58,680 bases of DNA. Origin: an uncultured Bacilli bacterium (lineage in GTDB: Bacteria > Bacillota_I > Bacilli_A > RF39 > UBA660). The translations under genes and the position numbers were made by a program. Of the stretch, positions 1-8,454 are shown piece by piece; within the stretch, counting starts at the first letter, position 1; each line of letters begins with the position of its first letter. The stretch is from positions 1 to 58,680 of the forward strand of contig CAKOMC010000002.1 in assembly GCA_934096535.1 (NCBI GenBank). Direction: 5' to 3'. The notes beneath the pieces were generated by a model. That model was not told the DNA's origin, searched no databases, and saw only the letters and a list, made by a program, of their open reading frames with translations.

Positions 1-408
1 AAAAGACTAGGTAGCCTAGGAGAAACAAAGGTAAGTAAAAAAGATAATAAATTTATTAAAACAGTAGAAATAGATGAGGATTACAATAAGCGTAATATTA
101 CTTTAACTAATGAAGAAGATAGATTAGTAATTAGTGGTAAGTTTAAAAAAGGAGAAAATGTTAGTTTTATCTTAAGAAAAGGTTTTACTAATAATTATTA
201 TGATCAAATAATAAGCAAGAAACCTTATACGGCCTTATGTGTAGATATCTTTACAGAAGAAGAAACTAATGAAGGTATTAATATTACGAGATATATTAAT
301 AAAGAGGGTTTAAGTGGTAAATATAGTATTTATATTAAGATAAATGATAAAATATATAAGACTAACAATTATATAGAAATTAGTGATTTAAAAGAGGCTT
401 TAGTGTAA
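1..408 (+). CDS. 3' end of an ORF entering from the left edge (136 codons, product unknown)
   Basis: Frame 1 is open from base 1 to TAA at 406-408 (...KINDKIYKTNNYIEISDLKEALV*) and is followed directly by a hairpin plus T-run. It is absent from the ORF track because it has no start codon in the window. No motif recognised. Confidence 0.45.
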   Translation, partial: KRLGSLGETKVSKKDNKFIKTVEIDEDYNKRNITLTNEEDRLVISGKFKKGENVSFILRKGFTNNYYDQIISKKPYTALCVDIFTEEETNEGINITRYINKEGLSGKYSIYIKINDKIYKTNNYIEISDLKEALV

Positions 409-436
409 TTTTGTTATTACTAAACCTCTTTTTTAT
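392..436 (+). terminator. Rho-independent terminator of the left-edge ORF
   Basis: aagagg(c)tttagt at 392-404 pairs with actaaa-cctctt at 419-430 (12 bp, one bulge, 14-nt loop). A T-run at 429-435 follows. Confidence 0.6.
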
Positions 437-505
437 TTCACTGACAATACAGTTTCTGGATTTATAGATAACTATATTTGGTACTTGATTAAATTACAAA
501 ATTTA

Positions 506-581
506 CAAAAGTGTGATAAAAAGGCTAAAAAAATCTGCAAAAGTGTGATAAAAATGGCTAAAATGCCTGCAAAAGTGTGAT
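506..581. repeat. Three tandem direct repeats with a 32-nt period (core CAAAAGTGTGAT)
   Basis: CAAAAGTGTGAT starts at 506, 538 and 570. Units 1 and 2 are 32 nt and share CAAAAGTGTGATAAAAA(T)GGCTAAAA. Unit 3 is truncated after the core. Confidence 0.85.
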
Positions 582-742
582 TTTAATAGAAATATGTCTT
601 TTTTAAGTCAAATATTTGTTACAAATAAATAATTATATGGTAAAGTATAAGTAATGAGTTTTAATTGATAAAATCGTGGTTATGTATAAATTTTAAATTT
701 GTGTTTGATGTGAATAATTAGTTGAAGTAGGAGAAAAATAAG

Positions 743-1642
743 ATGGATAATACTGTGTTTTATGGATTTAGAGGTAACATGCTTTTTCCAAAACAAATTT
801 CAATGTATAATATTGAATTGGAAAATACCTCCGAATGTAAGAATAAAGTTTTTAATGATTTTTTTACAAAATTAGAAAAAGAAAAAAAGTTGACATCAAA
901 ATATCAAAATCGTGTTTATTATATGATATTTAAGAATAAATATGAAAATATTTTGCATTGTCAGTTAGCTAGAAGACGAAAGTTTTATAAAAGAGAATTA
1001 AAAGATAACGATATAATTGAATTGATTGATGATGATTATCCATATGTTAATATTTTTATAAAATTGGATTCACAAATGTTTTTTATAGAATCTAAGACAG
1101 CAGTCTATCAAAATTATAATACATGCAGTAATGTAATCTCAAACATCATAAACAATAACTTAAATATAGATGGAATAACGATTATTTTGGAAAATATAAG
1201 CAACGAACAAGACTTTTGGAAATATTTTGATGGTGAAACGAAGGTTTATAAATTGGAGTTTAATTTAGTTTATCCAAATATTTTTAAAGCAGCCGATGCT
1301 GCCAGTAATGTTGTAAGGGAAGCACAAGAGGCAACTGGAGCAGATAGCCTTGAAATTGTGTTTCATAACTCAAAAGGTGATTTAAATCCTAATAAGGAAA
1401 AGGAAGGAATTAATTCATTTGTTAAGTATGCTAGTGCTGGTGGCGGTAAGTGGAGTATGCTCATTAAGGGTAAAAATAATAAAAAAGTAAAGATTACCAG
1501 TAGCCAAAATAGTGTTAAGGGCAGTTTAAATATTTCTAATAAACACTTAAACGAAAATGCATTAACATCAGAACAAGTAATTTCATTAAAATACTTGTTT
1601 GATGAAATAGAAACAATCGAAAGATTTAAAAAACATGATTAA
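743..1642 (+). CDS. Hypothetical soluble protein, 299 aa (first gene of the RT-associated module)
   Basis: Long ORF preceded by GGAG at 730-733. Its stop overlaps the start of the next ORF by 8 nt. No catalytic motif recognised. There is a G/S/K-rich stretch (YASAGGGKWSMLIKGKNNKK). Confidence 0.7.
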   Translation: MDNTVFYGFRGNMLFPKQISMYNIELENTSECKNKVFNDFFTKLEKEKKLTSKYQNRVYYMIFKNKYENILHCQLARRRKFYKRELKDNDIIELIDDDYPYVNIFIKLDSQMFFIESKTAVYQNYNTCSNVISNIINNNLNIDGITIILENISNEQDFWKYFDGETKVYKLEFNLVYPNIFKAADAASNVVREAQEATGADSLEIVFHNSKGDLNPNKEKEGINSFVKYASAGGGKWSMLIKGKNNKKVKITSSQNSVKGSLNISNKHLNENALTSEQVISLKYLFDEIETIERFKKHD

Positions 1643-2150
1643 AAATTTTATAATTAAATATAAATCGATTATTATAGAAGTGCTTTGTGCGTTACTTGCA
1701 CTATTGGCAGTCATTAATAAAAATGAAGAAATATTTCTTCTTGATTCAAAAAATTTAATAAATATATTGTTAACTTTACTCGGCTTGTGTTTTACTAGCT
1801 TTGGCTTTATAGAATCATCAATTAATAGTATATTAAACAAAGGCATAGATGGTAGAAAGAGAATATTATTAAACAAAAAAATCAAAAAATTAGTAGAAGA
1901 AATTCGCTCTAATATTGTTTTTATTTTTAAAACAATTATTATATTAATTGTAATAAATACAGTTAAAAATCTAGATTTTCCTTTTTTATGTGATATTTGT
2001 GACTTAAATCTTAAAATATATACCGTACATTCGCTTAAACATTTTATTATGAATTTTATTTCGACTTTTTTCTTTAATTTATCTGTTGGATGTTTATATG
2101 ATTTGCTTGATGCAATGTTTATAATTTTAAAAGAACATTATAATTTTTAA
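1635..2150 (+). CDS. Small multi-pass membrane protein, 171 aa
   Basis: ATG at 1635 overlaps the upstream ORF's end, suggesting translational coupling. Hydrophobic segments include IIIEVLCALLALLAVI, LINILLTLLGLCFTSFGFI, IVFIFKTIIILIVINTV and FISTFFFNLSVGCLY. Confidence 0.65.
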   Translation: MIKNFIIKYKSIIIEVLCALLALLAVINKNEEIFLLDSKNLINILLTLLGLCFTSFGFIESSINSILNKGIDGRKRILLNKKIKKLVEEIRSNIVFIFKTIIILIVINTVKNLDFPFLCDICDLNLKIYTVHSLKHFIMNFISTFFFNLSVGCLYDLLDAMFIILKEHYNF

Positions 2151-2185
2151 AATTTAAGGGATACTTTAAATAATGGCAAATTACC

Positions 2186-2215
2186 TTGCGTCAATTAGAA
2201 ACATAGTGTTATAAT
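2186..2215 (+). promoter_or_regulatory. Sigma-A type promoter with an extended -10, upstream of the RT leader
   Basis: TTGCGT at 2186-2191, an 18-nt spacer containing TG at 2207-2208, then TATAAT at 2210-2215. Confidence 0.6.
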
Positions 2216-2221
2216 GTAGTT

Positions 2222-2508
2222 GCTATTGTTGTAGGACAATAGGTTAATTTTAGTAATTGTCAATATTAAATTGATAATTTCTATTATATTAATGATATAT
2301 TTGAAGATATTCGTTGATATTTCACCTCCTTCAATGTGAATTGAAATCGTGAAGATTAATCTCACTATCTTTGATATTATTATATCATTATCTTTAAAAA
2401 TATTTGTAGCAATAAAAAGTGGGCGGTAGACCAGTAATGAAGATTAAATGGTTGAGGTTCGTTGTCAAAATACACCTGTATGGGGCGCTACACCTAGGTG
2501 TGTTTTTT
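2222..2508 (+). ncRNA. Candidate structured non-coding RNA / leader co-transcribed with the reverse transcriptase
   Basis: About 290 nt lie between the promoter and the RT ribosome-binding site with no credible ORF. Hairpins: 2223-2229/2236-2242, with a mutually exclusive alternative at 2235-2240/2256-2261. Long-range pairing 2291-2298/2382-2389 and 2304-2309/2366-2371 encloses the hairpin ttcaat-gtga-attgaa at 2330-2345. The 3' element is a duplicated TACACCT (2471-2477 and 2489-2495) plus AGGTGT (2496-2501) plus T6 (2503-2508). Confidence 0.45.
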
Positions 2509-2522
2509 CATGTGGAGGATAA

Positions 2523-3863
2523 ATGAGCGAAAGAAAAATTTTTAAAAACAAATATTATAAACACATTGATAAAGTTCCTAATATTTCTGATGTTATACCA
2601 AAGATAACTAACAGAGAATATATAGAAAGACATAGCTTTTATCCGTTTATAGGTACACAAATTAAATATAAAAAATATATAAAAGAAGTTTCTGAAATAA
2701 CAAAGAAACATTGGCACCCTAAAATAAGAGAAATTAAATATGCAGCTCATTTAGATAGCTTGATTTATCAGTGGTATTCACATCTTTTAAATGAAAATTA
2801 TAATAAGTACAGTACTGATAATGGCTTTAGCCGTTGTTCTGTTGCTTATAGAACTTGCTTTTCTGGAAAGAGCAGTATAAATTTTGCCAAAGAATTTATT
2901 GATGCTATTAAAAAATGTGATGAATGCTATATAATAGTAAGTGATTTTCATCAGTTTTTTGATAAAATTGACCATAAAATTTTAAAAAGTAATATTAGTA
3001 AGGTAATGGGCTTTTCTAAAATGCCAGATGATTGGTATAAAGTGTATAAAAGCATGACTAGGTATTGCTATATTTCTAAGGAGAGCATAGAAGAAAAGTT
3101 AATAAAAGAAAAATTTGAAACAAAGAAAAGTTTAAAATCGCTAATGTGTTATTTTCAAAATATATCATGGAAAGATGCTAAAAGTTATTTTATTGAAGAA
3201 ATCAAAAGGAATATAAATAAAAATGATTATGGAATTCCGCAAGGTTCTCCTTTAAGTGGAATATTTTCAAATGTATTTATGATTGATTTTGACAAAAAAA
3301 TGAATGACTATGTAAAAATTCGTAATGGCTTTTATATGAGGTATTGTGATGATATTGCTATTGTTATTCCAACTTATGCAGTTTCTAATATTGAACAAAT
3401 ATGGGATGAAGTCATCAAATATAAATCTGAACTTGATGGACTTGAGATTAACGAACAGAAAACATGTTGTTATATTTTTAAAAATAATAAAATAGAATCA
3501 TTACATAACGAACTTGAATTATTTAAAAAATCACCTGATTGGGTATCATATTTAGGATTTACATTTGACGGCAAATATGTAAAGTTTAGAGATAAAACTA
3601 TAACTAAATATTATTATAAATTTTATCACAAAATTGATAGAATGAAAAAACATGAAATAATTAGATTAAATAGAGGAAAACATAGAAAATCTTTGATTGA
3701 TAAGCATATGATACTAAAAGAGTTAAAAATAACTGGAAAATCTAGGAGATTTTCCGATTATTTAAGTAGAGCTAAAAATATATTTTATGGAGAATTTTAT
3801 ATCCAAAATTTTAATAAAAATACAAAAAATAAGTTACTTAATAGATTTAATAAAAACAAATAA
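2523..3863 (+). CDS. Stand-alone reverse transcriptase (RNA-directed DNA polymerase), 446 aa, non-intron type
   Basis: GGAGG at 2514-2518 precedes the ATG. RT motifs in order: KIREIKYAAHLDSLIY, VAYRTCFSGKSSINFA, IIVSDFHQFFDKIDH, GIPQGSPLSGIFSN, FYMRYCDDIAIV (YxDD), GLEINEQKT, YLGFTF. There is no maturase X, endonuclease, nitrilase or primase extension. Confidence 0.9.
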   Translation: MSERKIFKNKYYKHIDKVPNISDVIPKITNREYIERHSFYPFIGTQIKYKKYIKEVSEITKKHWHPKIREIKYAAHLDSLIYQWYSHLLNENYNKYSTDNGFSRCSVAYRTCFSGKSSINFAKEFIDAIKKCDECYIIVSDFHQFFDKIDHKILKSNISKVMGFSKMPDDWYKVYKSMTRYCYISKESIEEKLIKEKFETKKSLKSLMCYFQNISWKDAKSYFIEEIKRNINKNDYGIPQGSPLSGIFSNVFMIDFDKKMNDYVKIRNGFYMRYCDDIAIVIPTYAVSNIEQIWDEVIKYKSELDGLEINEQKTCCYIFKNNKIESLHNELELFKKSPDWVSYLGFTFDGKYVKFRDKTITKYYYKFYHKIDRMKKHEIIRLNRGKHRKSLIDKHMILKELKITGKSRRFSDYLSRAKNIFYGEFYIQNFNKNTKNKLLNRFNKNK

Positions 3864-4082
3864 AAGATATGATGATTTTTATAAACATTTACTTATAAAC
3901 TTTTAAAGGTAAAGAATCATAGCACATTGTATTGAAATATTTAGGTTTTAATCTTTTTTCTTAGCGGTAAGAGTGTGTAATGATTGATTTGATAATTTAA
4001 TGATTGCTATTATGAATATATAGTATATTTTTATTGAAAAACAAAATTAATTAAAGTTAATTCTCATTTTAAAATATAAAAA

Positions 4083-4123
4083 AATAACGCTTAAGTCTGA
4101 TACGACTTTGCGTTATTTTTTAT
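4083..4123. terminator. Bidirectional terminator between the RT module and the sugar transferase gene
   Basis: aataacgc (4083-4090) pairs with gcgttatt (4110-4117), with an inner aagtc/gactt pair. An A-run lies upstream and a T-run downstream. It overlaps the stop of the minus-strand gene. Confidence 0.65.
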
Positions 4124-4785
4124 TTAGCTCCAGTTTTAAATACTACAGCCTTAATAGTTCTAAATACACACTTAATATCTAGAAGAATACTACAATGTTT
4201 TACATAGTAATATTCAAGTTCTAATCTTTTTTCATAAGTAGTAGCAGATCTACCATTAGCGGCCCACCAGCCAGTAATACCTGGTTTAACAGCCTCATAA
4301 ATCTCATGGTTACCATTATGAGCATCAAGTTCACCTTCAACTAAAGGACGAGGTCCAATTAAACTTAAATCGCCTTTTAAAACATTAATAAACTGTGGTA
4401 CTTCATCTAGTGAAGTTTTTCTAAGAATTTTCCCCATTTTTGTAATTCTAGGATCATTTTCAAACTTTTGATTTTCATCCCATTCTTTTTTATACTTAGG
4501 ATCTTTTAATAATTCTTTTAATACTTCATCAGCATTAACTACCATACTTCTAAATTTATAAATATATATAAATTTACCATTTTTACCAATTCTTTTTTGT
4601 TTATAGAAGATAGTTTTTGTATCACCACTTAATAAGTAAGATATCTTTACTATAAGGGCTATAGGTAATAAGAATACGCATCCTATTAAAGAACAAATTA
4701 TATCAAATAATCTTTTAATTATAAAATATAATGTCTTTCTAATAGAAAAAGAATTAGTACTTTCTAATGTTGCTTCACCATTCAT
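4120..4785 (-). CDS. Bacterial sugar transferase (undecaprenyl-phosphate sugar-1-phosphate priming transferase, small WbaP/EpsL type)
   Basis: One N-terminal TM segment followed by KQKRIGKNGKFIYIYKFRSM...DPRITKMGKILRKTSLDEVPQFINVLKGDLSLIGPRP. I moved the start to ATG 4785, which has GGGGAG 7 nt upstream. The track ORF begins at TTG 4800. Confidence 0.9.
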   Translation of the reverse strand: MNGEATLESTNSFSIRKTLYFIIKRLFDIICSLIGCVFLLPIALIVKISYLLSGDTKTIFYKQKRIGKNGKFIYIYKFRSMVVNADEVLKELLKDPKYKKEWDENQKFENDPRITKMGKILRKTSLDEVPQFINVLKGDLSLIGPRPLVEGELDAHNGNHEIYEAVKPGITGWWAANGRSATTYEKRLELEYYYVKHCSILLDIKCVFRTIKAVVFKTGAK

Positions 4786-4938
4786 AATAACACTCCCCAA
4801 ACTACAATTAATTAACTTAAAGCAAAGTTATTGTATCATATAAATTAATATTGTGGTATAGGTTTTTTATGGAAAGTAGAATTTTTTTGACTTAATGATA
4901 TAGAAATAATATAATACCTCTTAAGAAAGGCTTTTATA

Positions 4939-5517
4939 ATGGGTAAAGTAGTAATAGAAAAAGTGGAATTATTTAAAGAAGTAGTAGGTGAATTAAATAA
5001 GAAGTTTATTGCTTTTGATACGGAAACAACTGGGTTTAGTCCTTATAAAGATAGAATAATAGAACTAGGTGCAGTTTTATTTATAAATAATAGAGAAACT
5101 GAGTATTTTAATTCTTTAGTTAAAACTGATGTTAAAAATTCTTATCAGGCTTATAAAGTTAATAAGATAAGTGAAGAAATGTTAGAAAATGCTCCTTTAG
5201 AAATAGATATTTATCCTAAGTTAGTAGAATTTTTAGAAGAAGTCTTAAAAGGAAATATTATCTTAGTAGCGCATAATGCTATTTTTGATATGCGTTTTTT
5301 AAAAAATACCTTAGAAAGATTGGGTTATAGTGGTCATATAAGATATTTAGATACATTAAAGATATCTCATATGTTTCCTACTATAGATCATCATCAAAGT
5401 ACTATAGCAGAGTATTTAGGGATTAGAAATGAAGAAGTGCATAGAGCATATACTGATGCCTTAACTTGTGGTAAGATATTAAATAAAGTTTTAAAAATTA
5501 GTGGTGATTATTTATGA
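4939..5517 (+). CDS. DEDDh 3'-5' exonuclease (DnaQ/epsilon-like)
   Basis: Exo I FIAFDTETTG, Exo II LVAHNAIFDMRFL, Exo III HRAYTDA. Confidence 0.85.
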   Translation: MGKVVIEKVELFKEVVGELNKKFIAFDTETTGFSPYKDRIIELGAVLFINNRETEYFNSLVKTDVKNSYQAYKVNKISEEMLENAPLEIDIYPKLVEFLEEVLKGNIILVAHNAIFDMRFLKNTLERLGYSGHIRYLDTLKISHMFPTIDHHQSTIAEYLGIRNEEVHRAYTDALTCGKILNKVLKISGDYL

Positions 5518-6128
5518 AAAAATGTGTAAATATATTACTAACTTATCCAGATGGTAATATTTATGTTGTTAGAAAAGTAAAATATGATGAGATTAAAAAG
5601 CATAATATAAAAAATATCATAGAATTAGAAAATTATTGTAATAAAAAAAATCTACTTGAGGATAATGGTGCAAATAATTTTTCGTATGATAGAGAAGTTG
5701 AAAAAGATATTATTGCTTATTTAGGATGTCAAAACGGTAAAATAAATTGGAATCCTAATTATAATGAGTTTGAAATTGAAAAAATATTTAATTTTCAAAA
5801 TAAAACTGAATTTGTTGTTAGGGCATATCCTGGTATTGGTTCTTTCAAACATGAACTTATTATCGGAATAATAGTAAACGCAGTATATGATGTATTAAAG
5901 TTCATTTTTTGTAATATGTTTAGATTAAGTACAGCACTTTCTTATAAAATAATGGCAAAGAAGGTTTATAAAGACGCTGATTTTATTAATAGTGTTATCT
6001 CAAAAAATAATAAATGGTCAGTTGGTTTCATAAATGAAGATAAGTTTTTTATGCTCAAATTTTGTGAAAAACATATTATGAAGAATAATGGTTATAAAAA
6101 AATAGATAATTTTTGGATAAAAGCGTAG
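5514..6128 (+). CDS. Hypothetical protein, 204 aa, translationally coupled to the exonuclease
   Basis: ATGA start/stop overlap at 5514-5517. One hydrophobic segment (ELIIGIIVNAVYDVLKFIF). No motif recognised. Confidence 0.55.
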   Translation: MKKCVNILLTYPDGNIYVVRKVKYDEIKKHNIKNIIELENYCNKKNLLEDNGANNFSYDREVEKDIIAYLGCQNGKINWNPNYNEFEIEKIFNFQNKTEFVVRAYPGIGSFKHELIIGIIVNAVYDVLKFIFCNMFRLSTALSYKIMAKKVYKDADFINSVISKNNKWSVGFINEDKFFMLKFCEKHIMKNNGYKKIDNFWIKA

Positions 6129-6270
6129 TCATGATAAAATTTAAAAATATTAAAGGTGGTAATAACCTTAAATAGTTAAACATTTTTTATAGAAACAATT
6201 TACTATATGTGGTAATATAGTAATAGTTATAAGAAATGTTTCTTTTTTTAACTAATTATTTATTTTTTCT

Positions 6271-6299
6271 TTGACTTTGAATAAATAGTTAGTATAATA
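6271..6299 (+). promoter_or_regulatory. Consensus sigma-A promoter of the EPS operon
   Basis: TTGACT at 6271-6276, a 17-nt spacer, then TATAAT at 6294-6299. It lies about 55 nt upstream of the first glycosyltransferase gene. Confidence 0.7.
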
Positions 6300-6352
6300 T
6301 TAAAAGATTTATTTATTAATTTATATGTTGTGAAGTAAAGGAAGTAGATGTA

Positions 6353-7489
6353 ATGGAAACCAATGAGCCTATAAAAATTTTTCAGCTGGTGGGAAGCTAT
6401 AAGGGTGGCGGTGTTGAGGCTGTTGTAATGAATTTTTATCGAAATATTGATAGAAATAAGATACAATTTACATTTGTATGTGATGAAGACTCAACTGATA
6501 TTCCCTATGAAGAAATAGAAAAACTTGGCGGCAAAATTATTATTGTGCCACCATATAGCAAGCCTTTTAAATACCATAGTGCTTTAAAAAAAGCTCTTAA
6601 AGAAGATGATTACAAAATAATCCATTCTCATATAAGTACGATGTCTGTATTTAGTTTATTTGCGGCTAAATGTGCTGGAGTTCCCGTAAGAATTGCACAT
6701 AGTCATAGTACAACTAATAAAAAAGAAAAAAAGAAAAACTTAATGAAACAAATATTAAGACCTTTTAGTAAAGTATTTGCAACTGATTATATGTGTTGTT
6801 CAGAACTTGCGGGAAGATGGTTATTTGGTAATAAAGAATATGATAAAGGTAATGTTTATTTACTAAATAATGCTATTGATTTAGATAAGTTTAAATATAA
6901 TGAATCTTTAAGAAAAAAGAAAAGAAAAGAACTTGGTATTAAAGATGATACCTTAGTAATTGGACATATTGGGAGATTTGTTGCTCAAAAGAATCATGAT
7001 TTTTTAATAGATATATTTAATGAAATTTATAAGAAGAACAATAATTCTATTTTATTACTTGCGGGACAAGGTCCTTTAATGGAAGATATTAAAAATAAAG
7101 TTAAAGAATTAAATTTAGATGATAATGTTAAATTCTTAGGGCAAAGAAGTGATGCTAATGAATTATATCAAGCCTTTGATGTATTCTTACTTCCTTCTTT
7201 ATATGAAGGGTTACCAGTAGTAGGAGTAGAGGCTCAAGCATCAGGATTATTGTGTTATTTATCTGATGATATGACTAAAGAAACTAAGGTATTAGATATA
7301 ACTAAATTTATGTCATTAAATAATACACCAAAAGAGTGGGCAGATAATATCTTAGATGATGTAAAAAAATATAAAAGAATAGATACTTCTAAAGAAATGA
7401 CGGCTAAAAACTTTAATATTAAAGAAGAAGCAAAGAAATTAGAAGAATATTACTTAAATCTATATAATAATGGTGGTGAAAAGAAATGA
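6353..7489 (+). CDS. Glycosyltransferase, GT4 (GT-B fold)
   Basis: EX7E motif YEGLPVVGVEAQASG and the typical GRFVAQKNHDFLI segment. Confidence 0.9.
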   Translation: METNEPIKIFQLVGSYKGGGVEAVVMNFYRNIDRNKIQFTFVCDEDSTDIPYEEIEKLGGKIIIVPPYSKPFKYHSALKKALKEDDYKIIHSHISTMSVFSLFAAKCAGVPVRIAHSHSTTNKKEKKKNLMKQILRPFSKVFATDYMCCSELAGRWLFGNKEYDKGNVYLLNNAIDLDKFKYNESLRKKKRKELGIKDDTLVIGHIGRFVAQKNHDFLIDIFNEIYKKNNNSILLLAGQGPLMEDIKNKVKELNLDDNVKFLGQRSDANELYQAFDVFLLPSLYEGLPVVGVEAQASGLLCYLSDDMTKETKVLDITKFMSLNNTPKEWADNILDDVKKYKRIDTSKEMTAKNFNIKEEAKKLEEYYLNLYNNGGEKK

Positions 7490-8454
7490 AAAAAGTTGCG
7501 ATTATTGTTTGCTGGATTGGAAAAATACCTGATTATTTTGATTTCTGGGAGTTTTCTTGCTCAAAGAATCCAAAATACGATTTTCTTGTTTTTACTAATA
7601 ATCATAGAAATAATAAGTATGATAATGTTAAATATATTGATTTTTCTTTAAAAAAATTTAATGAATTAGCTTCAGAAAAATTAAAGATTAAAATTAATAT
7701 AGATAAGCCATATAAATTATGTGACTTTAGACCAGCTTACGGTGTTATTTTTGAAGATTATTTAGAAAGTTATGATTTCTGGGGACATTGTGATATAGAT
7801 CAAATTTTCGGAAACTTAGAAAAATTTATAACTGACGATGTGCTAGAAAAGTATAGTAAAATTAATAAAAATGGTCATTTAACTTTGTATAGAAATACTA
7901 AAAAAGTTAATACATTATTCAAAGAAAATGGTAGTTTATTCAATTATAAAGAAGTTTTTCAATCAAATCAAAATTTTGCATTTGATGAATATACTGGAAT
8001 TAATATGATTGCCGAAAAACAAAATGTAAAATGTTTTTATATTAATAATTTTGCTGACATTGATAAAAGATTTAGAAGATACATTTGTAAAAATCATAGG
8101 AATTATAAATATCAATTTTATGAATACAATAATGGAAAAATAATCAAAATTTATTATGATGGTAGCTTAAAATACGAAGAAATGATGTATTTACATTTCC
8201 AAAAGAAAAAATTGAATATAAAATTTAATACATTTGAAGAGTGTATTGCAATCGGATATAAGGAATGCTCAAATATAAATGGCGCTATAACGAAAGAAAT
8301 AATTGAGAAAATCAATGGACATGATAATAGAATTTTATGTTTTTTTGAAAAAATTGGTTATTATACACATAAAATAAAAGAATTCTTTTTTTCTACAAGA
8401 GAAAAAAAGAAAATTTGGCTTAAACAAAAAAAATCTATGGAGGAATATAAATGA
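7486..8454 (+). CDS. Putative capsule-locus glycosyltransferase of an uncharacterised family
   Basis: ATGA overlap with the upstream gene. WGHCDIDQIFGNL is a possible DxD-type motif. The call rests mainly on operon context. Confidence 0.5.
   Translation: MKKVAIIVCWIGKIPDYFDFWEFSCSKNPKYDFLVFTNNHRNNKYDNVKYIDFSLKKFNELASEKLKIKINIDKPYKLCDFRPAYGVIFEDYLESYDFWGHCDIDQIFGNLEKFITDDVLEKYSKINKNGHLTLYRNTKKVNTLFKENGSLFNYKEVFQSNQNFAFDEYTGINMIAEKQNVKCFYINNFADIDKRFRRYICKNHRNYKYQFYEYNNGKIIKIYYDGSLKYEEMMYLHFQKKKLNIKFNTFEECIAIGYKECSNINGAITKEIIEKINGHDNRILCFFEKIGYYTHKIKEFFFSTREKKKIWLKQKKSMEEYK

Follow-up and report, generated by a model that had tools for sequence, protein, structure and literature searches.

The question raised by positions 437–4082 of the DNA analysed here, a 58,680-nucleotide (nt) stretch from an uncultured Bacilli bacterium (the window), is whether the stand-alone reverse transcriptase (RT) encoded in this region forms a single system with the two open reading frames (ORFs) that precede it. 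An initial annotation had placed three ORFs in the region, all of which are present (743–1642, encoding 299 amino acids (aa); 1635–2150, 171 aa; 2523–3863, 446 aa), and had proposed a new RT-based defence architecture. Since the region is 100% identical across six independent human-gut metagenome assemblies, the sequence is real and not an artefact of assembly. We consider it very probable that 437–4082 holds two independent modules, which are chance neighbours in the variable slot of a defence hot-spot by a capsule/polysaccharide locus; module A is the 299-aa and 171-aa gene pair, and module B, the RT with its leader, is a DRT2 system.

The separation of the two modules is seen in their distribution. 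A tblastn search with the 299-aa and 171-aa ORFs against the comparison set, 87 loci encoding relatives of the RT, found no homologue of either, and in 11 of 11 loci examined a membrane-protein homologue directly followed the homologue of the 299-aa protein, with no RT encoded in any of them; the absence of the ORFs from the RT loci, together with the RT-free occurrence of the pair elsewhere, argues that the region is made of two independent modules. In the closest RT relative (locus L001; 89% protein identity), nucleotide identity is 88% over 2194–3886, a span that takes in the −10 box together with leader and RT, and window positions 589–2193 have no counterpart by blastn; genes for an AAA_14/DUF4143 ATPase, a 233-aa protein and a HATPase_c protein stand in place of the ORF pair. 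A relative with 61% RT identity has AAA_21 and RloB genes plus two others at that position, and even the commonest neighbouring protein family covers at most 9 of the 51 RT loci with enough flanking DNA. A check for co-variation with the RT, which the initial annotation had suggested for both ORFs and the leader, gave a divided answer: the leader is co-inherited with the RT, and the ORFs beginning at 743 and 1635 are not linked to it. The proposal that these ORFs are part of the RT system was therefore not borne out, and with it falls the new architecture, the RT being Drt2 and the upstream ORFs lacking conserved linkage.

Profile searches assign the RT (2523–3863, plus strand; ribosome-binding site GGAGG at 2514–2518) to a described type. 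The protein, which contains the YCDD motif reported earlier (encoded at 3342–3353), scored 394 bits (E = 2e-118) with the PADLOC Drt2 model (PDLC03757), compared with 78 bits (E = 2e-22) for the runner-up family, and scored far higher on Drt2 than on Drt9 or other UG models in PADLOC. Residues 7–424 align with the solved structures of DRT2 from Klebsiella pneumoniae (PDB codes 9c0i and 9lje; E ~1e-50), the best NCBIfam match is the Drt2 equivalog NF041746, one homologue carries the NCBI name Drt2, and Pfam RVT_1, which represents the palm/fingers fold, is also matched. Retron RT models reached only E = 1e-12 to 1e-15, the group II intron model TIGR04416 gave 72 bits against a cut-off of 300, and a scan of positions 1–4400 against Rfam at E ≤ 1 returned no match, including none to group II intron RNA. 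We know of no curated Rfam family for the DRT2 non-coding RNA (ncRNA). These results agree with the earlier description of the RT as non-mobile and of defence type, distinct from retron RTs and devoid of a maturase or endonuclease domain. The accompanying statement that it could not be mapped onto a described type has to be withdrawn, as the profile classification proposed at the time places the RT inside the well-described Drt2 type, the DRT2 structures are matched and the leader carries a predicted hidden neo gene, the hallmark of DRT2. Judged by its sequence, the RT is a member of the DRT2/UG2 family and the locus a member of that family outside the characterised ACA-type (K. pneumoniae-like) subclade.

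In DRT2, an ncRNA of ~280 nt from upstream of the RT gene is bound by the enzyme, which reverse-transcribes a template within it over and over; the resulting tandem complementary DNA (cDNA) rebuilds a promoter and a never-ending ORF (neo), the product of which stops growth (Tang et al., 2024, PMC11100668; Wilkinson et al., 2024, PMC12039810). The corresponding element was sought here among all templates of 90–200 nt within 420 nt upstream of the RT that are bracketed by a direct repeat of at least 3 nt, ranked solely by the score of the junction −35/−10 promoter and by microhomology; reading frames were not used. The top-ranked candidate (2249–2392, minus strand) would be one neo repeat unit of 144 nt, or 48 codons, encoding DNDIIISKIVRLIFTISIHIEGGEISTNIFKYIINIIEIINLILTITK, and exactly one frame of its antisense concatemer is stop-free. 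It is bracketed by two copies of TTTA on the plus strand, one (2249–2252) forming the first bases of the template and the other (2393–2396) lying immediately 3′ of it, as counterparts of ACA-1 and ACA-2 of K. pneumoniae. A −35 box, TTGACA (2258–2263, minus strand), which would function only when two repeats are joined, then meets a −10 box, TATAAT (2379–2384, minus strand; plus-strand ATTATA invariant in ten loci), to give TTGACA-ATTACTAAAGATAATGA-TATAAT, which matches at 12 of 12 positions, has a spacer of 17 nt and carries a TGn extension; the −10 side of this joined promoter reads TGATATAAT (−10 at 2384–2379). The bracketing repeat is clade-specific and falls in the same alignment columns at both ends, being TTTA here, TATTTGA in L004 and AATGT(TA) in the L010 group. 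Such co-variation is what a guide for template jumping predicts, and the TTTA repeat could have this role.

The same repeat signature was recovered in nine of ten close loci with lengths of 144, 147, 153 and 138 nt, and the lengths remain multiples of three through insertions and deletions among the close relatives. A length divisible by three combined with an open frame characterizes the top solutions of 66 of 84 relatives, compared with 4 of 84 loci in a sense-strand control, and the full signature appeared in none of 150 dinucleotide shuffles of the window leader. As a positive control, a Drt2 annotated by the Prokaryotic Genome Annotation Pipeline (PGAP) on a Photobacterium plasmid (L195) yielded the same signature with a 111-nt repeat, a length reported for the K. 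pneumoniae clade (PMC12039810). A Shine–Dalgarno (SD) sequence with core GGAGG at 2325–2329 (minus strand), within AAGGAGGTG, precedes the neo start position, and its plus-strand complement CACCTC is conserved in ten of ten close loci; across the relatives, an SD followed by ATG is found in 34–38 of 59 distinct repeats. Half of the residues of the predicted Neo repeat DNDIIISKIVRLIFTISIHIEGGEISTNIFKYIINIIEIINLILTITK are I, L, V or F (grand average of hydropathy 0.92), a composition that fits the hydrophobic bias reported for Neo, and, as in published systems, residues are conserved where the promoter boxes and the SD dictate them. In some relatives (L014, at 4712–4863, L016, L018, L020, L021, L035 and L037) the repeat that forms the best promoter has a length not divisible by three (152, 131, 115 and 182 nt); an extra junction nucleotide (as in K. 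pneumoniae, 119 + 1), mis-picked boundaries or decayed loci are possible reasons.

The template is embedded in a leader with its own promoter (2186–2215, plus strand), which reads TTGCGT (2186–2191), 18 nt and TGtTATAAT (2207–2215). This promoter had been called near-consensus, which is accurate for the extended −10, perfect here and invariant in ten related loci (similarity to L001 starts at 2194), but not for the −35, with only three of six matches; the weak −35 explains why a consensus promoter scan missed it. The transcript would begin with an ncRNA of ~289 nt (2222–2510, plus strand), its 5′ end placed from the −10 and its 3′ end from the terminal hairpin and U-run. Alignments and blastn comparisons with L001 and L004 show that this leader is co-inherited with the RT while the upstream genes are swapped. 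The initial annotation described ~290 nt free of any credible ORF; this is correct for the sense strand, but the antisense strand has a stop-free frame of 82 codons (2443–2198), including a 56-aa ORF, in DNA of 26% G+C. Its suggestion that a promoter-driven adjacent ncRNA serves the RT as template is upheld by analogy, the leader carrying the DRT2 neo signature and being co-inherited with the RT.

The predicted RNA architecture is likewise that of a DRT2 leader. An 8-base-pair 5′ hairpin with a GUAG loop (2223–2242) is the positional counterpart of the K. pneumoniae ‘5′ handle’ and stands at the same place in six relatives with differing stem sequences; the template starts at about nucleotide 28 of the RNA, taking ~2222 as its start, compared with nucleotide 29 in K. 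pneumoniae. The 3′ scaffold (2393–2510) comprises helices 2419–2423/2458–2462 and 2429–2433/2449–2453 and a terminal hairpin (2469–2477/2496–2504) followed by a U-run, and a covariation-supported pseudoknot joins GUAGC (2406–2410) to GCUAC in the terminal loop (2487–2491). When this scaffold was applied to nine relatives, 98.1% of cells were paired, compared with ~40% in partner-slid controls, and 12 of the 24 pairs change on both sides, including three of the five pseudoknot pairs. Inspection by eye and folding gave the same topology for the Photobacterium DRT2 leader, in which GCGGC, just past the template, stands opposite GCCGC in a terminal-hairpin loop, the hairpin being followed by U's.

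A 10-mer, TGAAGATTAA, occurs twice in the leader, inside the template (2350–2359) and in a scaffold hairpin loop (2438–2447). Both copies change together in the L010 clade, to GTGAAGAAT, and both are complementary to the 3′ tail past the terminal hairpin (UUUUUC or UUCUUC, 2504–2509), with which RNAalifold pairs the template copy. A role in alternative pairing or priming is possible; the supporting changes are one-sided.

By analogy with K. pneumoniae DRT2 (PMC11100668; PMC12039810), the pathway from cDNA to Neo at this locus may be envisaged as follows. The RT would bind the ncRNA and, primed from the ncRNA's own 3′ end, would copy the template from 2392 down to 2249; the nascent TAAA end could then re-anneal to the second TTTA (2393–2396), and repeated rounds of synthesis would give tandem 144-nt cDNA repeats. 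Upon phage infection this cDNA would be made double-stranded, the junction promoter would fire and the repetitive mRNA would direct synthesis of an isoleucine-rich, hydrophobic never-ending protein (Neo), which would arrest growth as an abortive-infection response.

K. pneumoniae DRT2 (Tang et al., 2024, PMC11100668; Wilkinson et al., 2024, PMC12039810) is the closest known system. The two share a stand-alone RT of ~430–450 aa with YCDD and no conserved protein partner; an ncRNA of ~280–290 nt directly upstream on the same strand and under a promoter common to RNA and RT; a 5′ hairpin, a template from about nucleotide 28–29 and a 3′ terminal-loop pseudoknot; a repeat length that is a multiple of three, with a single frame of the antisense concatemer free of stops; −35 and −10 boxes split across the junction with a 17-base-pair spacer; an SD in every repeat; and a hydrophobic repeat protein, predicted in the case of the window. 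They differ in that the window RT is distant from that of K. pneumoniae (E ~1e-50, and an NCBIfam score under the cut-off) and its host is a low-GC gut member of the Bacillota; its repeat measures 144 nt (48 aa) as against 120 nt, the SD follows the −10 by ~49 nt instead of 13 nt, ACG replaces the AUG start, and the window ncRNA, unlike that of K. pneumoniae, ends in a terminator-like hairpin with a U-run. The locus also resembles retrons in its non-mobile RT, upstream ncRNA template and position among defence genes. Unlike retrons, it has an RT that strongly prefers Drt2 to retron models (1e-118 compared with 1e-12 to 1e-15), no conserved effector partner and, as predicted product, a protein-encoding concatemer instead of msDNA; msr/msd-type repeats were not specifically searched. 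The palm/fingers fold (RVT_1) is shared with the RT/maturases of group II introns, which differ from the window RT in their maturase/endonuclease domain, in the associated intron RNA, missing here by Rfam, and by the low TIGR04416 score (72 of the 300 bits needed).

Several observations weigh against the assignment of a working DRT2 to this locus. The NCBIfam Drt2 score of 330 bits lies under the curated cut-off of 390. The junction repeat is TTTA, and the ACA conserved in the K. pneumoniae clade is absent; in the K. pneumoniae-like subclade ACA-1 and ACA-2 bracket a template of 111–129 nt, an arrangement that the window lacks. A covariance model of the scaffold (R1), when searched beyond its own clade, reached only L035 and L037; of the proteobacterial DRT2 loci, neither L195 nor L196 was convincingly reached (L196 at E = 0.28 and on the wrong strand), and Rfam offers no model, so the homology to proteobacterial DRT2 RNAs rests on shared topology. 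For a basal stem closing the template, comparable to SL2 of K. pneumoniae, only a 4-base-pair AU-rich possibility was found, none convincing. Substitutions in the neo frame among close relatives number 13 synonymous and 74 non-synonymous, with no synonymous excess, a result that lends no support to purifying selection at the protein level; the coding case is built on the open frame, the triplet lengths of the repeats and the SD/ATG motifs. The repeat has a strong SD, AAGGAGGTG, but no in-frame ATG at all. Finally, in a sister strain (L194) a TGG-to-TGA change at RT codon 294 (L194 6237–6239, window 3402–3404) is a nonsense mutation under genetic code 11.

The last two observations suggest a rival that survives better than the others, namely that the locus is DRT2 by identity but weakened or decaying, with the neo start mutated from ATG to ACG, little or no Neo made and the RT drifting towards a pseudogene. 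The start position (2312–2314, minus strand), 10 nt after the SD, reads ACG, a base identical in seven independent assemblies, where the 89%-related L001, the L010 group and most relatives have ATG and L004 has ATA. In K. pneumoniae only GUG partly replaced AUG, and mutants with starts other than AUG or GUG lost defence (PMC11100668). A reading of TGA as tryptophan (code 4), considered because of the TGA in the L194 RT, was rejected on a count of 113 TGG against 10 in-frame TGA codons and on seven long ORFs that end in TGA; the genome uses TGA as a stop, and the nonsense codon is a hint that the system is decaying in this lineage. On the other side, the RT ORF, the catalytic motif, both promoters, the SD, the open frame and the RNA helices are all intact in the window, and the locus is 100% identical in six assemblies. 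The leader of L194, which is 98.6% identical over the region, has no differences despite 32 mismatches elsewhere in the locus. ATA or ATC stands at the SD-spaced position in several further lineages whose signatures are perfect in other respects, which suggests that near-cognate initiation may be tolerated; the DRT2 clade with lineage-specific junction repeats may accept ACG or ATA neo starts as a safety throttle. A metagenome scan for ATG/ACG leader variants returned no matches, the identical contigs having come through the RT protein. Taking both sides together, we regard decay as a serious but somewhat unlikely explanation, and a DRT2 module beside an unrelated gene pair remains our preferred reading.

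The initial model, in which the RT and its RNA have the 299-aa and membrane proteins as sensor and effector in a four-part system resembling DRT10, is very improbable. The genes do stand side by side on one strand between two terminators, and at least 24 contigs of the lineage share this fixed order, but these contigs are identical in sequence, and the adjacency is therefore clonal and provides no independent evidence. Some DRT systems do have membrane effectors: DRT10 (PMC12632851; bioRxiv 10.64898/2026.06.29.735271) combines an RT and an ncRNA with a SLATT membrane effector and makes tandem repeats in a telomerase-like manner (membrane effector: bioRxiv 10.64898/2026.06.29.735271). The window resembles it in having an RT with an adjacent ncRNA template for tandem-repeat DNA and a small membrane protein encoded nearby. 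Unlike DRT10, it has a DRT2-type RT, a 144-nt template with coding capacity in place of a short repeat, and a membrane ORF with no SLATT or other family match that is unlinked to the RT in any relative. The failure to find either ORF in the 87 RT-relative loci, the other genes upstream of the RT in L001, the RT-free pair in 11 loci, including the same capsule locus in L093, and the promoter of the ncRNA, located downstream of the ORFs, all speak against the four-part model.

That the antisense frame and split promoter reflect chance or base composition, with the RT making non-coding DNA as in DRT9 (homopolymer) or DRT10 (short tandem repeats), is hardly credible: an antisense stretch of 82 or more open codons does arise in 2.6% of shuffles of the AT-rich leader, and both a synonymous-site excess and a canonical start codon are missing, but none of the 150 shuffles shows the full signature, which 66 of 84 relatives have compared with 4 of 84 sense-strand controls, repeat lengths are kept as multiples of three, SD-then-ATG recurs in 34–38 of 59 distinct repeats, and the RT fits Drt2 far better than Drt9 or other UG models.

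Module A is, on sequence comparison, a separate, mobile pair of a soluble and a membrane protein. Gene 1 (743–1642, plus strand; 56 homologue clusters) encodes the 299-aa soluble protein, and gene 2 (1635–2150, plus strand) overlaps it by 8 nt, is translationally coupled to it and encodes the 171-aa membrane protein; the soluble/membrane split noted earlier is confirmed by the presence of three to four hydrophobic 19-mers in the 171-aa product and none in the 299-aa product. Neither protein matched a Pfam, NCBIfam, PADLOC or PHROG family, the membrane ORF gave no SLATT match, and searches of the PDB by sequence profile and by fold found nothing reliable for either. The AlphaFold2 model of the 299-aa protein (pLDDT 81) has a predicted fold in common only with uncharacterized phage proteins (TM 0.63). 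RdgC was considered as a relative and rejected, being weak only (E = 2e-3, TM 0.25), and PF15931, precomputed for two homologues of the 299-aa protein, was not reproduced by our own scan. A tblastn search also gave a weak match to a Vibrio phage-element protein (24% identity, E = 6e-4).

The RT-free loci with the pair are islands with integrase, insertion sequence (IS) and Abi_C genes, Mob_Pre/resolvase elements with a restriction-modification system, and one copy of the same capsule locus, L093, which lacks DRT2; the pair travels on integrative or mobilisable elements beside Abi_C and restriction-modification genes. A defence or exclusion role is plausible given this mobility and the AbiL-like genes that the cargo slot holds elsewhere, and the pair may, tentatively and with the odds against it, be an undescribed mobile two-gene anti-phage or exclusion cassette.

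The left edge of the slot is marked by the triple direct repeat CAAAAGTGTGAT (498–588, plus strand), which was found as described, with copies at 506–517, 538–549 and 570–581 and a 32-nt period; no further copy exists elsewhere in the window. L001 and L004 keep the element at 84–90% between flanks that differ on both sides. A further 89 metagenome contigs (L099–L187) have it, at two to seven copies per locus, and none of these contigs carries the RT or the ORF pair; in 30 of 56 it lies 26–46 nt upstream of a gene for a 432–435-aa AAA_14/DUF4143 ATPase. This ATPase gene does not follow the repeat in the window, where the ORF743 cassette is found instead. The triple repeat is thus a widespread element in its own right, found here where a variable cargo slot begins; it may be an operator or a recombination site, and the adjacent ATPase is the obvious candidate for a protein that would bind it. 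From the repeat to the DRT2 promoter, the slot spans 589–2193 in the window, 2492–5671 in L001 and 510–5716 in L004, and in L004–L007 it contains AAA_21 and RloB (AbiL-like) genes with genes for 752/532-aa and 174-aa proteins. The 174-aa ORF of L004 was compared with the window 171-aa ORF as a possible homologue and is unrelated. The slot is a defence hot-spot next to a polysaccharide locus, as is again suggested by a second, unrelated RT of 578 aa (RVT_1) in L006 (8309–10045), just past the sugar-transferase gene.

Both flanking terminators of the initial annotation are present. The hairpin with U-run at 390–438 (plus strand; −14.7 kcal/mol, z = −3.97) belongs to an upstream arylsulfotransferase gene and is the left border of the region, outside both modules; the ORF truncated at the window's left end (1–405) is, according to identical contigs, the C-terminus of a 664–676-aa arylsulfotransferase (PF17425/PF05935). 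The two-way hairpin at 4079–4121 (z = −5.8 on the plus and −5.0 on the minus strand) is common to the RT side and the convergent sugar-transferase gene (4120–4800, minus strand; PF02397). Between the RT stop and this terminator, ~215 nt (3864–4078) are non-coding, with no ORF or RNA family detected, and similarity to L001 stops at 3886. Downstream, 4120–8454 is a polysaccharide or capsule cluster that includes the Bac_transf sugar transferase on the minus strand, an RNase_T-like exonuclease (4939–5517), a 204-aa gene, a glycosyltransferase (6353–7489) and a DUF6625 protein; the exonuclease gene is divided between two calls, of 31 and 112 aa, in the sister strains L189 and L190.

By their sequences, the RT and its leader represent a further copy of a known anti-phage system, DRT2, and no new RT-based architecture; as standard defence-system profiles already call this RT Drt2, the value of the result is confirmatory and practical. 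Neo annotation by the published pipelines is reported to have been harder in divergent clades, and the combined search for a promoter and microhomology recovered a predicted Neo in this one. Two leads lie outside the RT system: the uncharacterized mobile two-gene cassette and the widespread triple-repeat element at the edge of the cargo slot. The ACG start and the nonsense codon in the RT of L194 indicate that this DRT2 copy may be weakened, attenuated or decaying, and the locus provides a natural test case for tolerance of a near-cognate Neo start as opposed to DRT2 decay. For the family, the junction repeat of DRT2 need not be ACA, and the signature of a gene made by reverse transcription extends beyond the Proteobacteria to a distant clade of low-GC gut Bacillota, where 66 of 84 relatives show it with triplet repeat lengths of 108–189 nt, open antisense concatemers and a split promoter.

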